Positions 1,814 to 22,201 of a stretch of 38,707 bases of DNA are shown in pieces. The first letter of the stretch is position 1. Each line of letters opens with the position of its first letter. A model generated the notes under the pieces. That model was not told the DNA's origin, did no database searches, and saw nothing but the letters and a program-made list of their open reading frames with translations. The stretch is from a virus (lineage: Duplodnaviria > Heunggongvirae > Uroviricota > Caudoviricetes). The position numbers and the translations under genes are program-made. The stretch lies in IMG/VR virus record IMGVR_UViG_2529292997_000008, positions 1 through 38,707 of that record, one strand, 5' to 3'.

Positions 1814-2932
1814 TTACAAAATGGAATATTCAGGGTAATAAACAAAGCGCCCAATTTCCCCATGATCCGGGCTGTAAATAATCACCGCTGCCAGACGCCG
1901 CGACCGCCAGCCGCCATTAGTTGAATATGCGTCTTTGCCAGCTAATGTGCCGTGGTGCTCAACTATTCCAAGTGATGTTTCAACAACTGATTGATGGTGC
2001 AGATGTCCAGTGTGAGCGTAAACAGCCACAGACCTTCCGAAATCCTCCCGCCAGTCAGCTACGCAAGCAGACAATAAATTTTCCGGCTTTTTGATAGTGT
2101 GCCCGTGGTGGTAAGCAAGGAATGTTTTGCCATACTGTGTGTGGTGGACAATGGCAGGTGACACGTCAACAGTCACGCGCGGCTCATCTTCGTAAAAAGC
2201 CGCAAGCGCAGCACGTAGCCAGATCATACCTGATTGGTCGTGATTACCGGATAATACCTGGATCTCGACATCCTTATGATTTAGTAACATCTTCCCGACC
2301 GCACGCCGGACCGACCGGATCGCCACATAAACCAGTTTTGCGTAGCGTGAATCACAATCTAAAACGTGATTACTTGATGGCGTCACTGGTAACAGGCCGT
2401 CAGTGTGAAGCACATCACCGCCGAGAAGTAAAACAGCTTTTTCAGACATCGGAGCAGCGCCAACAGCGTAGTCAAAGAAGTCATTCAACACGCGCTCAGC
2501 GATCCCAGTATCGTAGCTCTCACCGCATTCAGCTTTATGAGCAAGCGCCCCGATATGCAGATCAAACACCGGATAAAGTGCCAGGCTTTTTTGAAAATCA
2601 ATTTCAGGCACTGGCACAGCCTCCGCGCGTGGTATTTCATCAGTGAAAGCGTCGCGGGCCGCTTCCATTAGCTGTTCCATTTCTTCGCGGTCACGGGCTG
2701 TTTTAATCCAGCGCATGATAACATTGCCGTTCTTATCGACTAGCAACGACTCGCCATTGACGCCAAAACCAGGAGCGCGGCGTGTTGATAATAAACCACG
2801 TTTCGCCAGTTTTGCGCCCAGGCGCTCGACATTGCGTTTTGACATGCCATATTTTTCAGCAATCTGCTTGTACGTTAAACCGTTGTTATATTCAGCGATC
2901 AATTGCTCATCGCTGATTTTTCTTTGCGACAT
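1814..2932 (-). CDS. HTH domain protein fused to calcineurin-like metallophosphoesterase
   Basis: 372 aa; N-terminal HTH (LTYKQIAEKYGMSKRNVERL); metallophosphatase motifs DLH, GGD, GNHD, HHGH, GHLHH in canonical order; GAGGA RBS. Confidence 0.6.
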   Translation of the reverse strand: MSQRKISDEQLIAEYNNGLTYKQIAEKYGMSKRNVERLGAKLAKRGLLSTRRAPGFGVNGESLLVDKNGNVIMRWIKTARDREEMEQLMEAARDAFTDEIPRAEAVPVPEIDFQKSLALYPVFDLHIGALAHKAECGESYDTGIAERVLNDFFDYAVGAAPMSEKAVLLLGGDVLHTDGLLPVTPSSNHVLDCDSRYAKLVYVAIRSVRRAVGKMLLNHKDVEIQVLSGNHDQSGMIWLRAALAAFYEDEPRVTVDVSPAIVHHTQYGKTFLAYHHGHTIKKPENLLSACVADWREDFGRSVAVYAHTGHLHHQSVVETSLGIVEHHGTLAGKDAYSTNGGWRSRRLAAVIIYSPDHGEIGRFVYYPEYSIL

Positions 2933-2966
2933 AATGTTAATTCCTCAGGTTTACATTTTGTATACA

Positions 2967-4022
2967 TCAGGATATAGCACAACGAAAAAACTTGCACCCC
3001 AAATAATCCTCAATGCGTTTTTGTCTTATCGCATCGCTTTTTGCTTGCCGTTTGTGATGTGATTCATCAATTTCTACAGCAATATTATTCACAAGATCGT
3101 AGCCATCAATAAAATACTTGTTGCCAGCAACATTAACAGGATATTGCCTTATTAATTTAACTCCTTTTAGTTTTTCGTACATAGTTAATCCAGCATGTTC
3201 ATAACGCTTCCTAATCATATTTTTACAATTATAACTCATTTCTGATAATTTCTCGTCACATTCCCTTTTTATTTCCTCAATTACATTCTTGTCGCTTTTT
3301 AATTCAATAAAGTTTTCTATGTCGTTATAATTACCGCATTCAAAATTATTACTAAGACCTTTATTTTGACCCCATGTATGATACTTTTCCGCTATCTTAT
3401 CGCTAATATATCTTTCATATCCATAATTTGTTTTAACTGTAAAATATTCAATATTTAAATCAATGGTAAACTCATCATTATTAAGATGTTCATTTAAAAA
3501 CGTATCTGGATCTGCAATATCGCTTGAATGAAACAACCTTACCCATAGTTTTTCTATTGATACTCCGCGAGTAACGAACAACCATTTTTTATACTTTTCA
3601 GCATCTTCCTTTGACACATACACAGAGCATCGCCCGGGAGTATCACTAGTTTCAACATAGTTGTTACACCATAAAACATAATTATAAGCATAAGGACTAT
3701 CTTTTCTGGTATTATTTGAATATTTATTAAACACATCTTGTAAATCAACTAATCCACAAGATTCAATAACTGGCTTAACCCAATTTTCATTATATTCATA
3801 ATGTCTATATTTACCAGGTGTAACGAATCTAATAAACGTTATAGGTGTGATATACACATCATCACCATCAATAATAAAATCCTTGTATTCCTCAAATCCG
3901 TAAAGATCAGAGTATTTAACAAATGATTTAAGCCTATCGATTTCAAGTTCAGAAACAAGATTATTAACAGATAGTAATTGCGTGTCCTTACAATTTAGTT
4001 TCACATGATAAGTGGCAATCAT
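2967..4022 (-). CDS. low-GC accessory protein with C-terminal DUF559/Vsr-like (PD-(D/E)xK) endonuclease-type motif
   Basis: Track ORF 2967..4103 trimmed to ATG at 4022 preceded by AAGAGG; 351 aa; markedly AT-rich versus flanks; C-terminus FIDGYDLVNNIAVEIDESHH..DAIRQKRIEDYLGCKFFR fits pattern aIE.DG..HH...D..R...L...G..v.R. Confidence 0.6.
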   Translation of the reverse strand: MIATYHVKLNCKDTQLLSVNNLVSELEIDRLKSFVKYSDLYGFEEYKDFIIDGDDVYITPITFIRFVTPGKYRHYEYNENWVKPVIESCGLVDLQDVFNKYSNNTRKDSPYAYNYVLWCNNYVETSDTPGRCSVYVSKEDAEKYKKWLFVTRGVSIEKLWVRLFHSSDIADPDTFLNEHLNNDEFTIDLNIEYFTVKTNYGYERYISDKIAEKYHTWGQNKGLSNNFECGNYNDIENFIELKSDKNVIEEIKRECDEKLSEMSYNCKNMIRKRYEHAGLTMYEKLKGVKLIRQYPVNVAGNKYFIDGYDLVNNIAVEIDESHHKRQAKSDAIRQKRIEDYLGCKFFRCAIS

Positions 4023-4175
4023 ATGTACCTCTTTTCTTAATTTTATATATAACGCCTCAGACGTGCTACAACGCAAAAATCCCACCGCGTAACCCGTTTG
4101 CACAGGTTGCAGTGTCTTATTGCGTCAGAGGCGCTCTCAGGTGGCTAATTTTTGATTTACAGGCTGGTATGAAGG

Positions 4176-4277
4176 TTATGGATTGATAAGAAGGAACAAA
4201 CCGCCGAACAAAGCGACGTTAACAGCGATTGCAGCAGCGATGGCAAAGGCCAGGGCGAAAACGTGTTTACCGTCCAT
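4176..4277 (-). CDS. small hydrophobic peptide (33 aa, single predicted TM helix)
   Basis: MDGKHVFALAFAIAAAIAVNVALFGGLFLLINP; ATG with GAGAGGA RBS; not in track (<60 aa). Confidence 0.3.
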   Translation of the reverse strand: MDGKHVFALAFAIAAAIAVNVALFGGLFLLINP

Positions 4278-4410
4278 TTTAAAATCCTCTCTAAAACGCT
4301 CTATAACGAGCTAAATAGCTAAAGATATGCAATCGTAGCACCATGCGTGTTTTAGCTCGCTGGTGAGGTTGTTTTGTGGGTAATTTTGGATTTTTGCGAA
4401 TCGTGGTTGG

Positions 4411-15779: not shown

Positions 15780-15958
15780 AAAACGAAGTTAAAGATCTGC
15801 AAATAGATATTCAGCGCGATGAGCATGATTTAGCTACAGTCCGACAAATCCGGGCTTTTCATATGCGCGAATTGCTTGCATTGAAAGAGCTTGAGAAAAA
15901 GTTAGTCCAGTCTATTTCTGATCGTAAACAACTTATTGCTCGTTACGGGGGGAAATAA
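15776..15958 (+). CDS. hypothetical protein
   Basis: 60 aa; overlapping start/stop. Confidence 0.5.
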   Translation: MKNEVKDLQIDIQRDEHDLATVRQIRAFHMRELLALKELEKKLVQSISDRKQLIARYGGK

Positions 15959-16680
15959 TGAATTTAGAATCCATTCTGAAATTCCACTTTCCCAAATCAC
16001 CGCGATTATCAGACGAAAGCCGGGGCACATCCCCGGATGCGCTTAATACGACTGATGCGCTAACCGCTGCAGGTATGGCGCAATCGCGCGTAGAGCTTGG
16101 TTACAGCGCTTTTTTAGGGAAGATGGAACTATCGCAAGCCGAAAAACACAGGGCCGTAGTTTTGCTTACAGAGCGTTTAAGAGCTATGGCAAAAGATTAC
16201 GAATACGTCATGGAGCTGGACGAGGACAAACGCAATGATCTTATTATTCTTGTTGCCGTTTTCGCGTTTCGGGATTACTGCCAGAGTGCCGCGACAGAAA
16301 AAACTTGTATGGATTGCGGCGGATATAAATTTACGTTTGACGACTACGGAGAAAAACACCTTTGCAAAAAATGCAAGGGGCATGGAAAAGTTCGCAATCA
16401 TTGTAAACGATGCAAAGGGCGCGGCGAGATACCGGATAAAGCAGCCAGTGAAGCAGCGGAAATGCCAGTGTTCAAAACGTGCCAGCATTGCGGCGGGCGC
16501 GGGTACTCGCGTTTCCCTGTAGATCTTGTCCGGCGTGCGGTTAATCAGCTTGTATTTCCGGTAAGCCGATCAACATGGTGGAAAAAATACCGGGTTTTCT
16601 ATGAAGACGCCATCGCTGAATTGTTCAAGGAAGAGGCGCGGGCTGATAACGAAATTAAACGAGTTACGCGGGGTGAATGA
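15958..16680 (+). CDS. Cys-rich protein with four CxxCxGxG repeats; possible Q-type late antiterminator
   Basis: 240 aa; CMDCGGYK, CKKCKGHGK, CKRCKGRGE, CQHCGGRGY; sits after ninG-rusA where Q normally lies; function uncertain. Confidence 0.4.
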   Translation: MNLESILKFHFPKSPRLSDESRGTSPDALNTTDALTAAGMAQSRVELGYSAFLGKMELSQAEKHRAVVLLTERLRAMAKDYEYVMELDEDKRNDLIILVAVFAFRDYCQSAATEKTCMDCGGYKFTFDDYGEKHLCKKCKGHGKVRNHCKRCKGRGEIPDKAASEAAEMPVFKTCQHCGGRGYSRFPVDLVRRAVNQLVFPVSRSTWWKKYRVFYEDAIAELFKEEARADNEIKRVTRGE

Positions 16681-16883
16681 TGGATAAACTGGAAATAAAC
16701 GATCAGTTTGCCGTTATCTTGTTCGAAGATAAAACAGGCGGCGCATGGTGTAAGAAAGTCACTGGTGCTGAAGCACGCTTAATATTGGGTATGGCAAGCG
16801 CGTTAAATGATGGCGAATTGCCAGCCGTGCCAATTAAGCCAGTACATATTTACGGACGGAGTAACGACAATGAAAATACTTAA
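16677..16883 (+). CDS. hypothetical protein
   Basis: 68 aa track ORF. Confidence 0.45.
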   Translation: MMDKLEINDQFAVILFEDKTGGAWCKKVTGAEARLILGMASALNDGELPAVPIKPVHIYGRSNDNENT

Positions 16884-17217
16884 CATTGGGTGGCTGTATT
16901 GCGAAAACTGCGACGACGATGGCATGGTCGTAAAAACCGAAAAAGGTTGCGGCCTCATGCTGTATCAAGGTGATAAATTCGTTTGTCCTCGCTGCGGCGG
17001 CGGTGGTGAGATAGAAATTGTTAATGATATTGCTACAGCATATAAGCCATCTCGCATTGCCCTTGATGAAAAAATAAAAATTCATCCTTATTTATTACAG
17101 CAAATTATCGATCACGTATCGGCAGCCGCAATCTATAGCGGTAACAATTATCAGCGAGAAATGAACGTCAAACGTGCGATTGAGCAGTATTTCGAAGGTG
17201 ACGACAATGAAGCCTAA
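16870..17217 (+). CDS. zinc-ribbon protein
   Basis: Track ORF trimmed to ATG after GGAG RBS; CENC..(N)..CPRCGG motif. Confidence 0.5.
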   Translation: MKILNIGWLYCENCDDDGMVVKTEKGCGLMLYQGDKFVCPRCGGGGEIEIVNDIATAYKPSRIALDEKIKIHPYLLQQIIDHVSAAAIYSGNNYQREMNVKRAIEQYFEGDDNEA

Positions 17218-17476
17218 ATTAAAAGAGCATGAATTTAGGGATCTCATAAACGGAATAACCGATAAAGCTAGGATGTACTCAAATGCGCAACAGTTAAGGG
17301 CGGTTATAGTTACGGAATTAATGAAATACATTGAGCCATGCGGACCAGGCGACGAAATGACTATGGATAAGGCCATCAAGCGCCGTTCGGCTGATTGGTC
17401 GGTTAGTAACACTGGATTAACCGGATACATTGAAGGCTATAACGACTGTTTACAGGATCATGGCAATGAAAAGTAA
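17207..17476 (+). CDS. hypothetical protein
   Basis: Trimmed to ATG after GAAGGTGA. Confidence 0.45.
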   Translation: MKPKLKEHEFRDLINGITDKARMYSNAQQLRAVIVTELMKYIEPCGPGDEMTMDKAIKRRSADWSVSNTGLTGYIEGYNDCLQDHGNEK

Positions 17477-17681
17477 CCGCAAGCGCCTTGTAAGGGCATA
17501 CGATAAAGCATTAAAGGCTTTTGATGATCTGCGACACAATAAGCGCCAGCGCCGCAAATGGGCGCGTATGCTTGTTTATGAGTGGCATTATTCTGATGCT
17601 TTCATGGAAAGTGCGCCGCTATTAACACAGGAACAAGCCGACGAAGTAGCTAACGATAACGTTTATTATATGATGTGGTGA
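17460..17681 (+). CDS. hypothetical protein
   Basis: Trimmed track ORF 17430. Confidence 0.4.
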   Translation: MAMKSNRKRLVRAYDKALKAFDDLRHNKRQRRKWARMLVYEWHYSDAFMESAPLLTQEQADEVANDNVYYMMW

Positions 17682-17685
17682 TAAT

Positions 17686-18051
17686 ATGCAAATAATCATT
17701 GATTATCTTTGCCATGCTGCAAATACGCTTTTTGGTTTTTATCAACAACCATTCCTCAAAGAATGGGACGAAATGCTTAATGACATCATTGATAAAGGGT
17801 TAATAGTTGAGGTTGGCGAGCTAACGATAAAATTTAATTACGAAGGCAAAGAATATGATATATGGGTAGGTAACAGATGGTACGCATACGGGCATATTTA
17901 TTCAATTGGCGGCAAATACATTAAACGTAGCCAGGAGTTCAGGCCGCGATTCCGCACAATGCGCCGCCTGCGTGACCTGCATATGAATATATTTGAAAAT
18001 CAGGAAGCGTGTGAACTATTCAAAATCTACGGAGATAAATCATGGAACTAA
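17686..18051 (+). CDS. hypothetical protein
   Basis: 121 aa track ORF. Confidence 0.5.
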   Translation: MQIIIDYLCHAANTLFGFYQQPFLKEWDEMLNDIIDKGLIVEVGELTIKFNYEGKEYDIWVGNRWYAYGHIYSIGGKYIKRSQEFRPRFRTMRRLRDLHMNIFENQEACELFKIYGDKSWN

Positions 18052-18272
18052 AAATCTGGCAGGGTATCGACGTAGTTGATAATGAATTGTCTATGTTCGC
18101 CACTAACGGGAAACGCGTGGTGATCGCTACATGGACGCGCAACCATGATGATATAGCTTTTCGTCGCAAGGCTGCGGAGTGGCTTTTCTCTGATGAAGGC
18201 TACACGATGAATATCTCCCAGCTTGCCAGAATGAAGGATGAAAAGCTGGTTGATAGTTACACAACTGCATAG
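18042..18272 (+). CDS. hypothetical protein
   Basis: 76 aa track ORF. Confidence 0.45.
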   Translation: MELKIWQGIDVVDNELSMFATNGKRVVIATWTRNHDDIAFRRKAAEWLFSDEGYTMNISQLARMKDEKLVDSYTTA

Positions 18273-18282
18273 TGGGGCAAAT

Positions 18283-18516
18283 ATGTGTATCTATGAACAC
18301 AAGCGGGATAAAACCCGCTTTTTTGTTCGTGCTGGCGTGGCTTACCAGTATCACGACTGCGGATATATCGAGGCGCTTGCTTACGATCTGGACTTCGAAC
18401 AAGAAAAAGAATGGTTCGATTTCAAAATTTACCGGAAGCGTAAACCGACGCGCGACGAGCGACACGCTATCCGGGACTTTTTAATCAGCATAGACCGCTG
18501 GGAGACAGAGGAATGA
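18283..18516 (+). CDS. hypothetical protein
   Basis: Trimmed to ATG after GTGGGG. Confidence 0.45.
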   Translation: MCIYEHKRDKTRFFVRAGVAYQYHDCGYIEALAYDLDFEQEKEWFDFKIYRKRKPTRDERHAIRDFLISIDRWETEE

Positions 18517-18800
18517 GAGCGAAGAAAACAGCAGATCAGAAAGCGTTAGTTATCACTACAACTGATGTGTCGTTATTCACGAAGGGTGAAGAAATAGATC
18601 TTAAATTACTTTTCGGCATGTTTGAGCCACACGAAAAGCCGTGGTTCGTGCATGAAGACAAACAGGGAAATATGCGCGTAGTAGTGCCGGACAAAAACAG
18701 CGACATATTTTTTGCTATTCCAGACCCGTTACATGACGGTGAATTGCTGGCGGTATTGTTGATCGCTGATGCTGTTACTTATAAAGGGAAAGAAATATGA
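18513..18800 (+). CDS. hypothetical protein
   Basis: 95 aa; ATGA overlap. Confidence 0.5.
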   Translation: MRAKKTADQKALVITTTDVSLFTKGEEIDLKLLFGMFEPHEKPWFVHEDKQGNMRVVVPDKNSDIFFAIPDPLHDGELLAVLLIADAVTYKGKEI

Positions 18801-19024
18801 AAGTTAAATTCTTGCACGATCACGGCTACCCATCATTAAAACGCGTGGTAGGGGAAACGGTAGACGTTGTTCATTCTGATGATGTGACCTGCGTCATTTT
18901 GGGTAAAGACCTTATCGCTCACGGTGCTGATGATTACTACATTAACCCGGCGTGGTCATATACGTTTAGCCTGGGCGACTTCGTAGGCGATAAGGGGCGC
19001 GGCTTGCAAGTAGTCGAGGGTTAA
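18797..19024 (+). CDS. hypothetical protein
   Basis: 75 aa; ATGA overlap. Confidence 0.5.
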   Translation: MKVKFLHDHGYPSLKRVVGETVDVVHSDDVTCVILGKDLIAHGADDYYINPAWSYTFSLGDFVGDKGRGLQVVEG

Positions 19025-19028
19025 TATC

Positions 19029-19277
19029 ATGGACGTTTACGAAGATTTATACCTTCAAACAAATACCAGCACTTTTTATTTTTTGAAAAACGGCGTCGTA
19101 TATCGCAGCGACAACGGGGTGATAATGAAAGAGTGTTTATTTAAGCGTAAAGACCTACTCGAAGATCTGGTTTTTGCCGGGATATTTCGTAAACGTCCGG
19201 CTAACCTGGAAGAAGAAATGTTGATTGAGGTTATTAAACATGAAAATCAGGGTAAGTTATTTCCGGGCGAAAGATAA
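19029..19277 (+). CDS. hypothetical protein
   Basis: 82 aa track ORF. Confidence 0.5.
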   Translation: MDVYEDLYLQTNTSTFYFLKNGVVYRSDNGVIMKECLFKRKDLLEDLVFAGIFRKRPANLEEEMLIEVIKHENQGKLFPGER

Positions 19278-19491
19278 GGCAACAGGAAAGCGGATGGCGA
19301 TCCTGGTTAATGAAGCTAATTATATGTTTGTGCTTCAGCCGTGGTGCATAGCTGACTATAACGATGATTATCGCCGTCACGGTGCGCGGGGTGCTGTAGG
19401 GATGAAGGGATGGCAACCGCGTGACATGGAAAACTATTGTGAATGGAAATTGATAGCAAAATATACGGTCGATTATAAAGGTGTTTTCTAA
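19240..19491 (+). CDS. hypothetical protein
   Basis: Trimmed track ORF 19225; overlaps preceding gene in another frame. Confidence 0.4.
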   Translation: MKIRVSYFRAKDKATGKRMAILVNEANYMFVLQPWCIADYNDDYRRHGARGAVGMKGWQPRDMENYCEWKLIAKYTVDYKGVF

Positions 19492-19697
19492 TGTACGTCA
19501 GATGCACTGAATCAAAATCATCATGCTTTGAGGTTGGCGGAATATATACCGTAGATCACCTGACTGGTGATGAACTTAACACCCAATACATTAAAGACGA
19601 CCTCGGCGACGCGTGGCGCTATTGGGATTGCTACGCGCGTGGACACGTTACCAGTCAGTTTGGTACGGAACCGATCGCGCGTTTTGTTAAGTGGTGA
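19491..19697 (+). CDS. hypothetical protein
   Basis: 68 aa track ORF. Confidence 0.45.
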   Translation: MYVRCTESKSSCFEVGGIYTVDHLTGDELNTQYIKDDLGDAWRYWDCYARGHVTSQFGTEPIARFVKW

Positions 19698-19716
19698 GGC
19701 GTTGGACAACCATAAA

Positions 19717-19732
19717 TGTGATCTGTATCACA
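19717..19732. promoter_or_regulatory. CRP-type palindrome TGTGATCTGTATCACA
   Basis: Perfect TGTGA-N6-TCACA, flanked by AAA and A, close to the idealised CRP site; intergenic. Confidence 0.45.
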
Positions 19733-19735
19733 ATG

Positions 19736-19776
19736 TATACGAAATGGCATTGTTTCGACAGTGCCATTTTGTTATA
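19736..19776 (+). promoter_or_regulatory. inverted TACAAAATGG-type motif pair enclosing a sigma70-like promoter
   Basis: TATACGAAATGG-16 nt-CCATTTTGTTATA; TTGTTT-17-TATATA promoter inside; same architecture as 36082-36121. Confidence 0.4.
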
Positions 19777-19811
19777 TATAAGCCACGGAAAGACGGAGGG
19801 GAGGCAAGAAG

Positions 19812-19952
19812 ATGAGCGCTAACGCTAAATATCCGGCATGGGTTTTTGAGTTATACGCCCGCTACTTTGAATTGCTGGCACAAGGTGAAGAAGCATTAAG
19901 CATTGACGAGTACGCGGAGTGCTTAGGGTTTAAAGGAGACGAAGAAGCATAA
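19812..19952 (+). CDS. small protein (46 aa)
   Basis: ATG preceded by GGAGGGGAGG; below track cut-off. Confidence 0.35.
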   Translation: MSANAKYPAWVFELYARYFELLAQGEEALSIDEYAECLGFKGDEEA

Positions 19953-19995
19953 AACACGGGGCCGGATGGCCCCATCAAATCAGAAGGGTGTAATC

Positions 19996-20289
19996 ATGAA
20001 AAGCGCTAAATTTATTGCTTGCTGTTTTGTTGAAGTTCCCTATAACGATGCGTTCTATCACGCTACTTTTACCGATAAGAATGGGAATGATCACGTTATT
20101 GTCGGCAAGCGTGGTGACTGGCTTTATATAACTGATGATGATTGCATTTTCACTAAAAATCAGTTGCAAAAACTGGTTATCGGTAAACAGGAACAGGAAG
20201 GCTATCAAATCATCCCGGTGGAAAGACTGAAAAGGGAGCAGAGAATTAAACGCGCTCAAGAGGAATTAAATAACATAAAGGGTATGTGA
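19996..20289 (+). CDS. hypothetical protein
   Basis: Track ORF 19966 trimmed to ATG after AAGGGTG. Confidence 0.5.
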   Translation: MKSAKFIACCFVEVPYNDAFYHATFTDKNGNDHVIVGKRGDWLYITDDDCIFTKNQLQKLVIGKQEQEGYQIIPVERLKREQRIKRAQEELNNIKGM

Positions 20290-20290
20290 T

Positions 20291-20545
20291 ATGAAAACAA
20301 TCAGACTATGGCGCGGCAATAGCCGACTTGATGGTGAGTACATCCGCGTGATTGAAGATGTTAATCGTGGTCGGTTTTATGAATTGGCATACAGCGAAAA
20401 AAGGGAGAAAGAATATCTGAACGAATCGACCCCTATGTGGCGTAAAGTGGCTGGCCTTGCCTCAATTCTGCGCCACGGGTTTTATGCAGATCATAACACG
20501 CTAATTGATGCCGAACTGGTGACAACTCTTTACGAAGGAGAATAA
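20291..20545 (+). CDS. hypothetical protein
   Basis: 84 aa track ORF. Confidence 0.5.
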   Translation: MKTIRLWRGNSRLDGEYIRVIEDVNRGRFYELAYSEKREKEYLNESTPMWRKVAGLASILRHGFYADHNTLIDAELVTTLYEGE

Positions 20546-20548
20546 ACA

Positions 20549-20872
20549 ATGAGTAAATTTATCAGCGTTAAGGTTTTCCGTGGCAATTTTCCAGAAGATA
20601 AAGAAATTGGACAATTCGCAGGTGAACGTGGCGTATGTTTCCGTGTAGCTACTGAAGACGATGCGCACGTTAAATGCTTTCACGTATCTGAACCGCCTTT
20701 TAATGCAGACCATCTTGAAGACCTGAATAGAATTAAAAGCCTTATTTTTGCCTATCTGGCGTTCCCTGGCATAGCTGATGCTGATGTTGAATTGGTTGGG
20801 GCCGAACTGGTGGCAGAATACAAAATGACTGAAGGCGAAAACGGAGGGGTGGAAATTGAGCGCATCAAATAA
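20549..20872 (+). CDS. hypothetical protein
   Basis: 107 aa track ORF. Confidence 0.5.
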   Translation: MSKFISVKVFRGNFPEDKEIGQFAGERGVCFRVATEDDAHVKCFHVSEPPFNADHLEDLNRIKSLIFAYLAFPGIADADVELVGAELVAEYKMTEGENGGVEIERIK

Positions 20873-21107
20873 GCTGTATAAAGTCAGGTGTAAAGGCGAA
20901 TACCCTGGCTTTACGGTTGGTTGCGAATATCTGGGCCACATTGGGTACGGCCCTTTCGGTGAGTTGGGAATGAATACGATTGACGACGACGGCGACAGCA
21001 GGACGCTTGATCTTGATAGCGATGATTTCGAATACATCCCGCCAGTCACTTACCGCGTCGTCGATGATTTCCTGGCTGAACATGAAGACGAGGATGATGA
21101 TGATTGA
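20856..21107 (+). CDS. highly acidic small protein
   Basis: 83 aa; C-terminal half dominated by D/E, ending EHEDEDDDD. Confidence 0.5.
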   Translation: MSASNKLYKVRCKGEYPGFTVGCEYLGHIGYGPFGELGMNTIDDDGDSRTLDLDSDDFEYIPPVTYRVVDDFLAEHEDEDDDD

Positions 21108-21294
21108 ATGCCTTATCGCTGTGATTGTTTTGCTTTATATCGCTGGCGCGATCCTGATGTCATGTTTTATTAAGTTTAGCGGCGCTGAACCTGGTGGCCT
21201 TGAGATTCCTTTTTGGCCTGTGACTGTGTTTATCGCTTTCTTCGACGCTACGGCAGAGCAGATCAATCGAGCTATTAAGGAGCGCAAGAAATGA
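21098..21294 (+). CDS. small membrane protein
   Basis: Trimmed to ATG after GAGGA; two hydrophobic segments. Confidence 0.4.
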
Positions 21295-21470
21295 TTGAAG
21301 ATGGGGTGTACGCAACAGTAGTAGACGGGCTGTTTTACCGCGTAGAAGGTGATGATATTCGCATCCGCGTTGGCGGTGGTGAGTGGGTAGCGCCAATCAT
21401 TAAGACGACGCGAGAAACAATTAAAATATTTCTTGATGCTGGTGAACTGGTGAGGGTTAGCGACCTATGA
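21291..21470 (+). CDS. small protein (59 aa)
   Basis: ATGA overlap; N-terminus MIEDGVY resembles next ORF (MNEIEDGIY). Confidence 0.4.
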   Translation: MIEDGVYATVVDGLFYRVEGDDIRIRVGGGEWVAPIIKTTRETIKIFLDAGELVRVSDL

Positions 21471-21643
21471 ACGAGATCGAAGATGGTATCTATTTACATA
21501 AGGTATTTAACATCGTCTATTTGGTTAGAGGTGAATCGGTGATGATAAGACCTGATGATGATCCTTATTGGGAATTAAGCGACATGGATCGGTGGCATAT
21601 GCAAACATTGCTTGATAATGGCCTGATATATAGAAAGCCGTAA
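21467..21643 (+). CDS. small protein (58 aa), possible paralogue of preceding ORF
   Basis: ATGA overlap; stop lies inside the first copy of a 15-bp direct repeat. Confidence 0.4.
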   Translation: MNEIEDGIYLHKVFNIVYLVRGESVMIRPDDDPYWELSDMDRWHMQTLLDNGLIYRKP

Positions 21644-21655
21644 AGCCGTATTTGT
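21641..21655 (+). repeat. direct repeat copy 1 (TAAAGCCGTATTTGT)
   Basis: Identical 15-mer recurs at 21891-21905; both copies begin at a stop codon. Confidence 0.6.
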
Positions 21656-21665
21656 TGGGGGGAAT

Positions 21666-21893
21666 ATGGAAGAAATGGTTTTACTGTCATCAATATGGCA
21701 TCGGTTCGGAACTGAAAAAGGATACTCACCTGCTTGCTGGCTGGATAGTAAAAGCGGAAAGGAGTATCAAAACGAGTGCGAATTTAGAAGGGAGTGGCGA
21801 GGTGGTAAGGAAGTGCAAGGATATTTTGCACCAAAACACGTTGCCGCCAAATACAAAGAATGGCTTGTGCGTTTGCTTGGCCCTTATCGTTAA
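21666..21893 (+). CDS. hypothetical protein flanked by 15-bp direct repeats
   Basis: 75 aa; GGGGGGAA RBS. Confidence 0.45.
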   Translation: MEEMVLLSSIWHRFGTEKGYSPACWLDSKSGKEYQNECEFRREWRGGKEVQGYFAPKHVAAKYKEWLVRLLGPYR

Positions 21894-21905
21894 AGCCGTA
21901 TTTGT
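21891..21905 (+). repeat. direct repeat copy 2 (TAAAGCCGTATTTGT)
   Basis: Identical to 21641-21655. Confidence 0.6.
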
Positions 21906-21929
21906 AGGGCGTAAACAAACAGATTAAAA
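21902..21929 (+). promoter_or_regulatory. candidate late promoter (TTGTAG-16-TAAAAT) upstream of a terminator and the lysis genes
   Basis: Promoter-like hexamers about 30 nt upstream of hairpin 21959-21981; resembles lambdoid PR'-tR' layout. Confidence 0.35.
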
Positions 21930-21958
21930 TATTCTCTAACAATGCGAAACTGTAACTA

Positions 21959-21981
21959 CCCGGCCCAGCGCCGGGTTTTTG
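21959..21981 (+). terminator. rho-independent terminator upstream of holin (tR'-like)
   Basis: CCCGGC-CCAGC-GCCGGG hairpin followed by TTTTTG. Confidence 0.7.
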
Positions 21982-22000
21982 CTTTGTTGGAGGTAAATCT

Positions 22001-22201
22001 ATGTTCGACAAAATACGGGCGGCGTGCGCTTATGTAACAGGGACCGTAACCGCTTTTTTTGGTGCGATAACCATTAATGACGTTGCCGTCTTTGTGGGTA
22101 TCTTATCAACCATTGGCACATTTGCCGTTAACTATTACTTCAAATCACAGGAGAACAAGCGAGCGCAAGAGGAACACGACGCACGAATGGGGAATAAGTA
22201 A
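22001..22201 (+). CDS. holin, class II / pinholin-like
   Basis: 66 aa; two TM segments, charged C-terminus; immediately precedes SAR endolysin. Confidence 0.75.

Follow-up and report, generated by a model that had tools for sequence, protein, structure and literature searches.

Several systems in which many small phage genes lie packed together have been described. Phage accessory regions (ARs) owe their definition to a genomic comparison of enterobacteriophages (Silas et al., bioRxiv 10.1101/2023.04.06.535777). Their content varies between the conserved flanks of syntenic relatives, their genes are small, many are dispensable and some mobile, and published ARs have often been identified through the ocr, ral, abc2 or related genes that they contain. 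In phages resembling lambda and P22, the nin region separates the replication genes from Q and consists of a packed series of small co-directional open reading frames (ORFs) with overlapping stops and starts; it is largely dispensable, displays presence/absence mosaicism in a fixed order and belongs to the rightward early operon. The early arrays of rV5 (ORF121–141) are also long runs of hypothetical genes, of 40–130 codons, in virulent myoviruses with a different regulatory logic. Here, we describe an array of small genes lying between the Q antiterminator gene and the lysis cassette of a tailed phage (Caudoviricetes) represented by the IMG/VR record IMGVR_UViG_2529292997_000008, the whole 38,707-nucleotide stretch of which is referred to below as the window.

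By sequence, this element is a temperate coliphage of the mEpimmI (mEp021-like) group. About half of all mEpimmI genes have been described as flexible and located in variable regions, and these phages are reported to be as common as lambdoid phages in human gut samples (PMC11893012); searches of the text of that report found no analysis of the interval considered here. The array shares with ARs the features listed above and fits their operational definition, with variable content between conserved flanks, dispensability and horizontal transfer; it is an ordinary example of a phage accessory region, with uncharacterised products. It differs from published ARs in lacking any match to a counter-defence gene, and in having three variable zones interleaved with a rigid core in a single translationally coupled array. 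The likeness to the nin region extends to gene packing, overlaps, mosaicism, probable dispensability and probable placement in the rightward early operon, and genes for NinG (PF05766) and RusA lie just upstream from Q; unlike the nin region, the array lies downstream from Q, beginning at its stop codon, and none of its 21 proteins matches a Pfam Nin family. Single genes, rather than the array, are shared with rV5. The reading that we favour, to which we give a probability of about 0.6, is that the array is a collinear set of independent small genes forming a delayed-early, nin-like extension beyond Q, which would encode modulators acting early in infection and in which the variable zones would be accessory regions.

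A tiled array of 21 small genes downstream from Q

The array occupies positions 16677–21893 of the window, on the + strand, and comprises 21 co-directional genes (g1–g12 and g14–g22) encoding proteins of 46–121 amino acids (mean of about 81), with 96% of the interval coding. If the Q/g1 junction is counted, 13 of the 21 junctions are overlaps (ATGA or longer), five have a spacing of 0–12 nt, and three are gaps of 114, 43 and 22 nt. The original prediction, made from the sequence without database searches, had described a dense, co-directional block of overlapping small genes here; the tiling stands, whereas the estimate of about 25 genes has to be lowered to 21. Both flanks are as it described them. 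The upstream gene encodes a true Q antiterminator (Pfam PF03589 Antiterm, E 1.6e-29, 102.3 bits for a cut-off of 26.7), the TGA stop codon of which overlaps the ATG of g1 (ATGA), and the array is followed by a lysis cassette of holin, lysozyme and Rz/Rz1 genes. For most relatives, the products of these genes share 77–100% identity with proteins bearing the corresponding annotations, and a few alleles are divergent (for the holin, 89–100% in most relatives and a divergent allele, at 52%, in two).

Gene starts were selected on the basis of ribosome-binding sites and the annotation of relatives, and selection was assessed from the ratio of non-synonymous to synonymous changes (pN/pS) in codon-aware comparisons with relatives. 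All 21 genes are real and under purifying selection, with pN/pS values of 0.07–0.44 and a clear excess of changes at third codon positions in every case; g17 (0.42) and g20 (0.44) are the two fastest-evolving genes of the block. A twenty-second ORF (19691–19822), lying over the 114-nt gap, was rejected as a gene, with a pN/pS of 0.68 and equal change at all three codon positions. The long minus-strand ORFs are shadow ORFs, the 182-amino acid one being broken in 35 of 36 relatives. Scans of the array interval for tRNAs, tandem repeats and Rfam families were all empty.

A fixed core interleaved with three variable zones

The comparison set consisted of 45 IMG/VR loci retrieved with Q as the anchor, one of which is the source of the window itself, together with four annotated relatives; these loci contain 43 distinct Q-to-holin blocks, to which all counts out of 43 refer. 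DNA searches yielded matches to seven isolated phages and, among 5,426 complete E. coli genomes, to prophages in 35, each covering just 26–82% of the block, at 85–91% identity. The Q-to-holin span ranges from 2.0 kb and eight genes, in mEp021, to 7.1 kb and 29 genes. Clustering of the encoded proteins gave 43 families, including 13 singletons, most of which correspond to pieces of the main families or to in-frame fusions between them. The genes follow the same order in all 43 blocks, with no conflict among 647 family pairs.

Against this fixed order, gene content follows two regimes. Four genes (g6, g9, g10 and g11) are present in every block and two more (g5 and g7) in all but one. The core genes g6, g7, g9, g10 and g11 are 68–100% identical among relatives, with pN/pS values of 0.07–0.26. 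Nothing is ever inserted among g5, g6 and g7 or among g9, g10 and g11, and variation between g7 and g9 is limited to the optional g8 cassette and one rare insertion (family F40, in a single block). The remaining intervals are hypervariable: 12 gene-content configurations were found between Q and g5 (zone A), 29 among 40 blocks between g11 and g17 (zone B, 0.4–2.3 kb long) and 13 between g17 and the holin gene. The synteny comparison suggested in the original prediction as a means of finding hypervariable slots has, in this way, yielded three, and the relatives display abundant presence/absence variation rather than a fixed content. Identity is also mosaic along the block. In locus L039, Q is only 86% identical to that of the window but g1–g9 are 98–100% identical, whereas in L044, Q is 100% identical but g1 only 78%.

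Zone B of the window is comparatively reduced, with one copy of g12 where relatives have up to five, and the window lacks families F14 (annotated by PGAP as an ASCH or RNA-binding protein), F20, F21, F22, F23 and F25, together with a PAPS-reductase-like cassette. The gap at 19698–19811 is the slot in which relatives hold additional g12 copies or F22, F23, F25 or F27. In loci L012, L013 and L028, the slot occupied by g12 paralogues in zone B holds a 274-amino acid protein with a PAPS-reductase domain (PF01507, E 2.4e-9), by far the largest cassette of the pan-array.

Isolated plaque-forming phages differ widely in this respect, from eight genes in mEp021 to 25 in MagusPhagus with the same gene caller (31 coding sequences in its record), and mEp021 has no counterparts of 13 of the 21 genes. 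This comparative evidence suggests that many array genes would be dispensable for lytic growth.

Gain, loss, duplication and fusion of genes

The cassettes that come and go are gene-sized, and overlapping stop/start junctions are retained. The g2 cassette (16861–17211) is bounded by 14-nt direct repeats (GTRACGACAATGAA) at 16861–16874 and 17198–17211, each of which contains a start codon; among relatives lacking g2, one junction variant, found in two blocks, retains exactly one copy of the repeat (GTAACGACAATGAAG), and the other variants have diverged. Comparison with junctions from relatives without g8 shows this gene to be an ATG-to-ATG insertion. The g22 gene is flanked by 24-nt direct repeats (21641–21664 and 21891–21914), only one copy of which is found in relatives without g22; it is a discrete insertion, for which no terminator of its own, as expected for a moron, was seen.

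The families of g12 (0–5 copies), g20/g21 (1–3) and g4 (1–2) arose by tandem duplication followed by divergence. Diverse members of the g12 family are 24–41% identical to the window copy in alignments. The tandem genes g20 and g21, correctly picked out as probable paralogues in the original prediction, are 30% identical (BLASTP E 1e-5) and match the same PHROG. In-frame chimeras are also found (g1::g3, g7::g8, g12::g18, g16::g18, g17::g18, F25::g18 and g18::g21), and all can be explained by simple deletions between neighbouring genes. Seven proteins among the relatives of g18 (P0043, P0044, P0046, P0047, P0051, P0056 and P0160) are natural in-frame chimeras. Apart from two of these fusions, they place the N-termini of g12-, g16-, g17- or F25-type proteins before the C-terminal acidic module of g18; in the two exceptions, the N-terminus of g18 is combined with g21 or with the last 43 residues of Q. 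A common motif encoding DDDGD marks the junction in several of the g18 fusions. The products of g16 and g17 share a C-terminal motif, AELV..Y..EGE, with DNA that is 85% alike over 20 nt (20505–20524 and 20796–20815); this common end could serve both proteins as an interaction tail or be a trace of recombination.

Several cassettes are shared, by horizontal transfer, with unrelated virulent or P2-like enterobacterial phages. Full-length homologues of g9 with 42–45% identity are present in 119 phage records, and those listed are from virulent, rV5-like Vequintavirinae with genomes of about 130–140 kb; the homologue in rV5, ORF127 (43% identity), lies within a run of small ORFs. P2-like Salmonella prophages carry homologues of g5 in their early operon, and Edwardsiella phages also have them; proteins 47–51% identical to g4 are found in Sashavirus phages and E. 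coli phage PJ16, and the core of g18 is also found in phage LL5.

Proposed placement of the array in the transcription programme

The Q/g1 ATGA overlap leaves no room for an intergenic promoter between Q and the array, and in mEp021 the gene that adjoins Q with a similar overlap is not g1 but g6. At the other end of the array lies a conserved non-coding element. Its terminator (21958–21985), which corresponds to TERM_5 of the mEp021 record and ends 16 nt before the holin start codon, is the only strong terminator conserved throughout the group in our scan. The -10-like motif GATTAAAAT lies 27 nt upstream from the hairpin and is followed by CTAACAATGCGAAA; both are invariant in 31 distinct upstream regions, in a sample in which 33 of 66 third codon positions of the holin gene vary. 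No DNA similarity to the 111-nt region preceding the holin gene was found outside this phage group. In lambda pR', the -10 element is followed, 6–7 nt further on, by an AACGAT-like sigma-dependent pause element and then by a terminator, as expected for a Q-dependent late promoter. The pre-holin element has a similar layout, and a Q-dependent late promoter can therefore be placed there by analogy, with moderate confidence. Together, the Q/g1 overlap and the ending of the array at this element suggest that the array belongs to the early rightward transcript that includes Q, which would assign it to the early or delayed-early class of genes and not to the late class.

The predicted RNA of this region (window positions 21917–22000) pairs CUCUAACAAUGCGAAA with UUUUGCUUUGUUGGAGG (z -4.5), bringing the 5' motif against the T-run and the Shine-Dalgarno sequence of the holin gene. 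It can be hypothesized that this pairing would mask the holin ribosome-binding site in readthrough transcripts, and less so in those starting near position 21939; the leader may separate early readthrough from late transcripts for holin translation.

Other hairpins are found within the array. An intrinsic terminator-like hairpin of 7 bp, with five GC pairs, followed by TTTTTGTT, lies inside g7 (18301–18320) and, if functional, would render the expression of distal genes dependent on antitermination. The gap at 19698–19811, at the most variable slot of the array, contains a hairpin of roughly 20 bp preceded by a smaller one; it could mark the scar of a deletion or a site of recombination, or act as a terminator. 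Between g14 and g15 (19956–19975) there is a GC-rich hairpin, GGGGCCGGATGGCCCC, the pattern of which occurs once each, on the + strand, in 22 of 52 loci; it has no T-run on the + strand but, read on the minus strand, is followed by a T-rich tail.

A Gp17/nut N-like antitermination system has been reported for the mEpimmI group (PMC11893012). In the model that we propose, the array would prolong a nin-type delayed-early region beyond Q: it would share the early rightward transcript of Q, under Gp17 antitermination, be translated by coupling, and lie upstream from the Q-dependent late promoter. Each of its small products would work alone, as a binder or modulator of host or phage processes, at an early stage of lytic growth. 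The variable zones would act as accessory regions and be the likeliest site of counter-defence, superinfection or host-takeover factors, and the conserved core would more probably serve a function common to the whole phage group.

Searches for function and the acidic protein g18

The original prediction regarded such blocks as reservoirs of anti-defence and host-takeover factors and proposed profile screens as a check. These screens were negative: no match to a named anti-restriction, anti-CRISPR or other family was found in Pfam, PHROGs, NCBIfam, PADLOC or PDB profiles, at the following coverage. In Pfam, none of the 21 proteins matched a family above threshold. In PHROGs, for which g1–g12 and g14–g21 were scanned, the matches were to families of unknown function, except for one weak match of g5 to a family labelled as a membrane protein (moron category), and g10 and g15 were unmatched. 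The NCBIfam scan (10 of the 21 genes) and the PADLOC scan gave no match, and PDB sequence-profile searches with g18, g12, g5, g10, g9, g11 and g2 gave nothing below an E value of 0.1. None of the 21 proteins displayed a helix-turn-helix domain or matched an anti-CRISPR (Acr) family. For eight cassette families present only in relatives, Pfam scans revealed no function other than the PAPS-reductase domain mentioned above, in three relatives. As judged by these searches, no product belongs to a characterised family.

Three individual proteins singled out in the original prediction do have the properties ascribed to them. The zinc-ribbon protein g2 has four cysteines (C11, C14, C39 and C42), within the motifs CENCDDDG and CPRCGGGG, that are invariant across 12 homologues, and a weak match to the DnaJ CXXCXGXG Pfam profile (16.7 bits, E 0.009), below the cut-off of 32.7. 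The small membrane protein g19 is strongly hydrophobic, with a 19-residue Kyte-Doolittle maximum of 2.76. The strongly acidic protein g18 has a net charge of -16, 26.5% Asp plus Glu and a pI of 4.05.

The charge of g18 is comparable in extremity to that of Ocr and ArdA, and the original prediction had proposed this protein as a DNA mimic, a proposal that the structural model does not favour. The predicted structure is an SH3-like beta-barrel (residues 8–61) followed by a helix (residues 66–75) and a disordered acidic poly-D/E tail, with acidic residues in loops 43–57 and the tail, whereas Ocr and ArdA show extended DNA-like charge arrays; the predicted fold is unlike theirs, with no DNA-like array of carboxylates, and no sequence similarity or Pfam, PHROG or PDB profile match to DNA mimics was found. 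A motif, C-x(6-7)-F-x2-G-x2-Y ... D-x2-G-D, is common to g18 and g12, but profile-profile comparison of the two with hhalign was not significant (probability of 1.7–2.8%), and an exhaustive profile search with the g18 family gathered only 17 representatives, none of them a free-standing g12 protein, the sole g12-like sequence being part of a chimera. The broader idea that the block consists largely of one superfamily of small beta proteins was also rejected, as all-against-all hhalign comparisons were not significant and the top links were artefacts of fused or mis-started ORFs.

Alternative explanations

The array could instead belong to the late operon, with a Q-dependent promoter at or inside the 3' end of Q and small genes assisting lysis, assembly or the virion. 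Lambda pR' directly follows Q, the interval between Q and the lysis genes is the site of lambdoid late leaders and morons, and a membrane protein, g19, is encoded near the lysis cassette. The orthologue of g10, mEp021_41, has been seen by mass spectrometry in virion preparations, and the authors of that study propose a RegA-like similarity for it (PMC11893012), which a PDB profile search did not reproduce at sequence level. Its presence there could mean late expression or a structural role and weighs against our favoured reading, as do several other observations: timing and promoter assignment are deduced from sequence only, the candidate late promoter has a poor -35 region, of which there are two alleles, a consensus promoter scan did not list this site, and the hairpins at 18301–18320 and 19698–19811 imply that distal genes may need antitermination or unrecognised internal promoters. 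Nevertheless, Ssb was likewise reported in mEp021 virions by the same proteomics (PMC11893012), which suggests that abundant non-structural proteins were carried over; no intergenic space separates Q from the next gene, in the window or in mEp021; the only strong group-wide terminator, with its -10-like motif, stands immediately before the holin gene; and g5 has homologues in an early operon. Placement in the late operon therefore seems improbable. The same low standing is given to the idea that the whole block is core machinery, consisting of small regulators and accessory factors for replication or recombination, with variation reflecting neutral loss in decaying prophages. The near-universal presence of g6, g7, g9, g10 and g11, and almost of g5, where variable genes might have been expected, is a further point against an accessory array, and the high conservation of the five core genes, the unbroken gene order and the occurrence of fragments and fusions in relatives, many of which are prophages or metagenomic contigs, are in keeping with such machinery. 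However, phages isolated as plaque formers differ as widely in content as mEp021 and MagusPhagus, the variable genes are also under purifying selection and recur in unrelated virulent phages, and zone B alone is found in 29 configurations.

Anti-defence functions are also to be considered. In the narrowest version, the array would be primarily an anti-defence island, with g18 countering restriction or recombination as a DNA mimic and the g12 paralogues constituting diversified related inhibitors. The antirepressor CarS is a DNA mimic with SH3 topology, and the charge of g18, its acidic loops and tail, the motif common to g18 and g12, the natural g12::g18 chimeras, and the variable copy number and high divergence of g12, which are typical of arms-race genes, all point in this direction. 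We nevertheless consider this version very unlikely: g18 matched Ocr, ArdA and other mimics neither in sequence nor in fold, the g18/g12 comparison was not significant, g12-like sequence was met only in a chimera, and the chimeras can be accounted for by neighbour deletions. A more speculative proposal, doubtful but less so than any of these alternatives, is that the variable zones hold new counter-defence or host-takeover proteins, notably g12 and g18 as one SH3-like family, amplified (0–5 copies) and diversified as inhibitors of, or decoys for, the variable immunity proteins of E. coli, the acidic tail of g18 being a portable addition; separately, the array would lie between Q and its target promoter, with a leader masking the holin ribosome-binding site in early, but not late, transcripts. 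More generally, an anti-defence reading of the array is plausible. Hypervariability, dispensability, genes shared with other phages and a probable early placement agree with the reservoir of anti-defence and takeover factors that had been predicted, whereas the fixed five-gene core does not, and no homology or fold match links any product to a known family, to host modulation or to counter-defence.

Coordinates and other features

The coordinates and properties of the genes and elements discussed above are presented in Table 1. Two further observations on individual genes can be added. The g5 protein has invariant motifs (DYLCH..NT, W..NRWY and RPRFRTMRRL), and no fold match was found for its predicted structure (predicted local distance difference test score, pLDDT, of 80). 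The g22 protein has a weak match to the KilA-N profile (16.7 bits, E 0.0065), below the cut-off of 23.8.

Table 1. Genes and non-coding elements of the Q-to-holin interval, in window coordinates; blocks, number of the 43 distinct Q-to-holin blocks containing the gene; aa, amino acids.
Feature	Coordinates	Strand	Length	Blocks	Profile family	pN/pS	Remarks
Q antiterminator gene	15958..16680	+	240 aa		PF03589		DnaJ-like CXXCXGXG zinc fingers
g1	16677..16883	+	68 aa	40/43	phrog_35000 (unknown function)	0.21	Zone A
g2	16870..17217	+	115 aa	19/43		0.20	Zinc-ribbon protein; optional cassette
g3	17207..17476	+	89 aa	37/43	phrog_29262	0.32	
g4	17466..17681	+	71 aa		phrog_8758	0.31	Basic, pI 9.6; family with 1–2 copies per block
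g5	17686..18051	+	121 aa	42/43			
g6	18042..18272	+	76 aa	43/43	phrog_38280	0.15	
g7	18283..18516	+	77 aa	42/43	phrog_30442	0.07	Alternative start at 18238
g8	18513..18800	+	95 aa	24/43	phrog_33175		Optional ATG-to-ATG cassette within the core
g9	18797..19024	+	75 aa	43/43	phrog_5009	0.17	
g10	19029..19277	+	82 aa	43/43			Orthologue of mEp021_41
g11	19240..19491	+	83 aa	43/43	phrog_38609	0.13	Basic; 38-nt overlap with g10
g12	19491..19697	+	68 aa				Zone B; sole window copy of a family with 0–5 copies in relatives
Non-coding gap with long hairpin	19698..19811	+	114 nt				RNA fold z -4.2; ORF without coding signature
g14	19812..19952	+	46 aa	29/43	phrog_22232	0.11	Acidic, pI 4.05
g15	19996..20289	+	97 aa	32/43		0.13 (one pair)	Start as in the PGAP call for relative L048
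g16	20291..20545	+	84 aa	27/43	phrog_32200		
g17	20549..20872	+	107 aa	39/43	phrog_23107	0.42	Acidic
g18	20856..21107	+	83 aa				TTG start; acidic, poly-D/E tail
g19	21100..21294	+	64 aa	39/43	phrog_10061		Small membrane protein
g20	21291..21470	+	59 aa		phrog_15318	0.44	Paralogue of g21
g21	21467..21643	+	58 aa		phrog_15318		Paralogue of g20; family with 1–3 copies per block
g22	21666..21893	+	75 aa	8/43		0.12	Rare cassette
Conserved non-coding element	21923..21985	+					GATTAAAAT (-10-like), CTAACAATGCGAAA, then GC hairpin with T-run; candidate Q-dependent late promoter and terminator
Holin gene	22001..22201	+					Opens the lysis cassette and bounds the array downstream; annotated as HP1 family holin or class II holin

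Elsewhere in the window, an island of low GC content (0.30–0.38, versus about 0.46 elsewhere) extends from about 2500 to 4300. It contains a minus-strand ORF (2967–4103) encoding a 378-amino acid protein with a C-terminal DUF559/Vsr-like endonuclease domain, the neighbours of which are a 372-amino acid ORF beside a DnaB-like helicase gene and a Lin1244-like gene. The ORF at 2967–4103 resembles acquired cargo and is possibly a defence or exclusion gene.

Significance for mEpimmI phages

The array makes up about 10% of the mEpimmI genome. Comparison across relatives turns what was a list of hypothetical proteins into a map, with a fixed core, three hypervariable slots and a candidate late promoter/terminator unit. 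The hypervariable slots are sensible first targets for anti-defence or toxicity screens. As none of the cassettes resembles a known family, any that proved to act against a defence system would be the first member of a new one.

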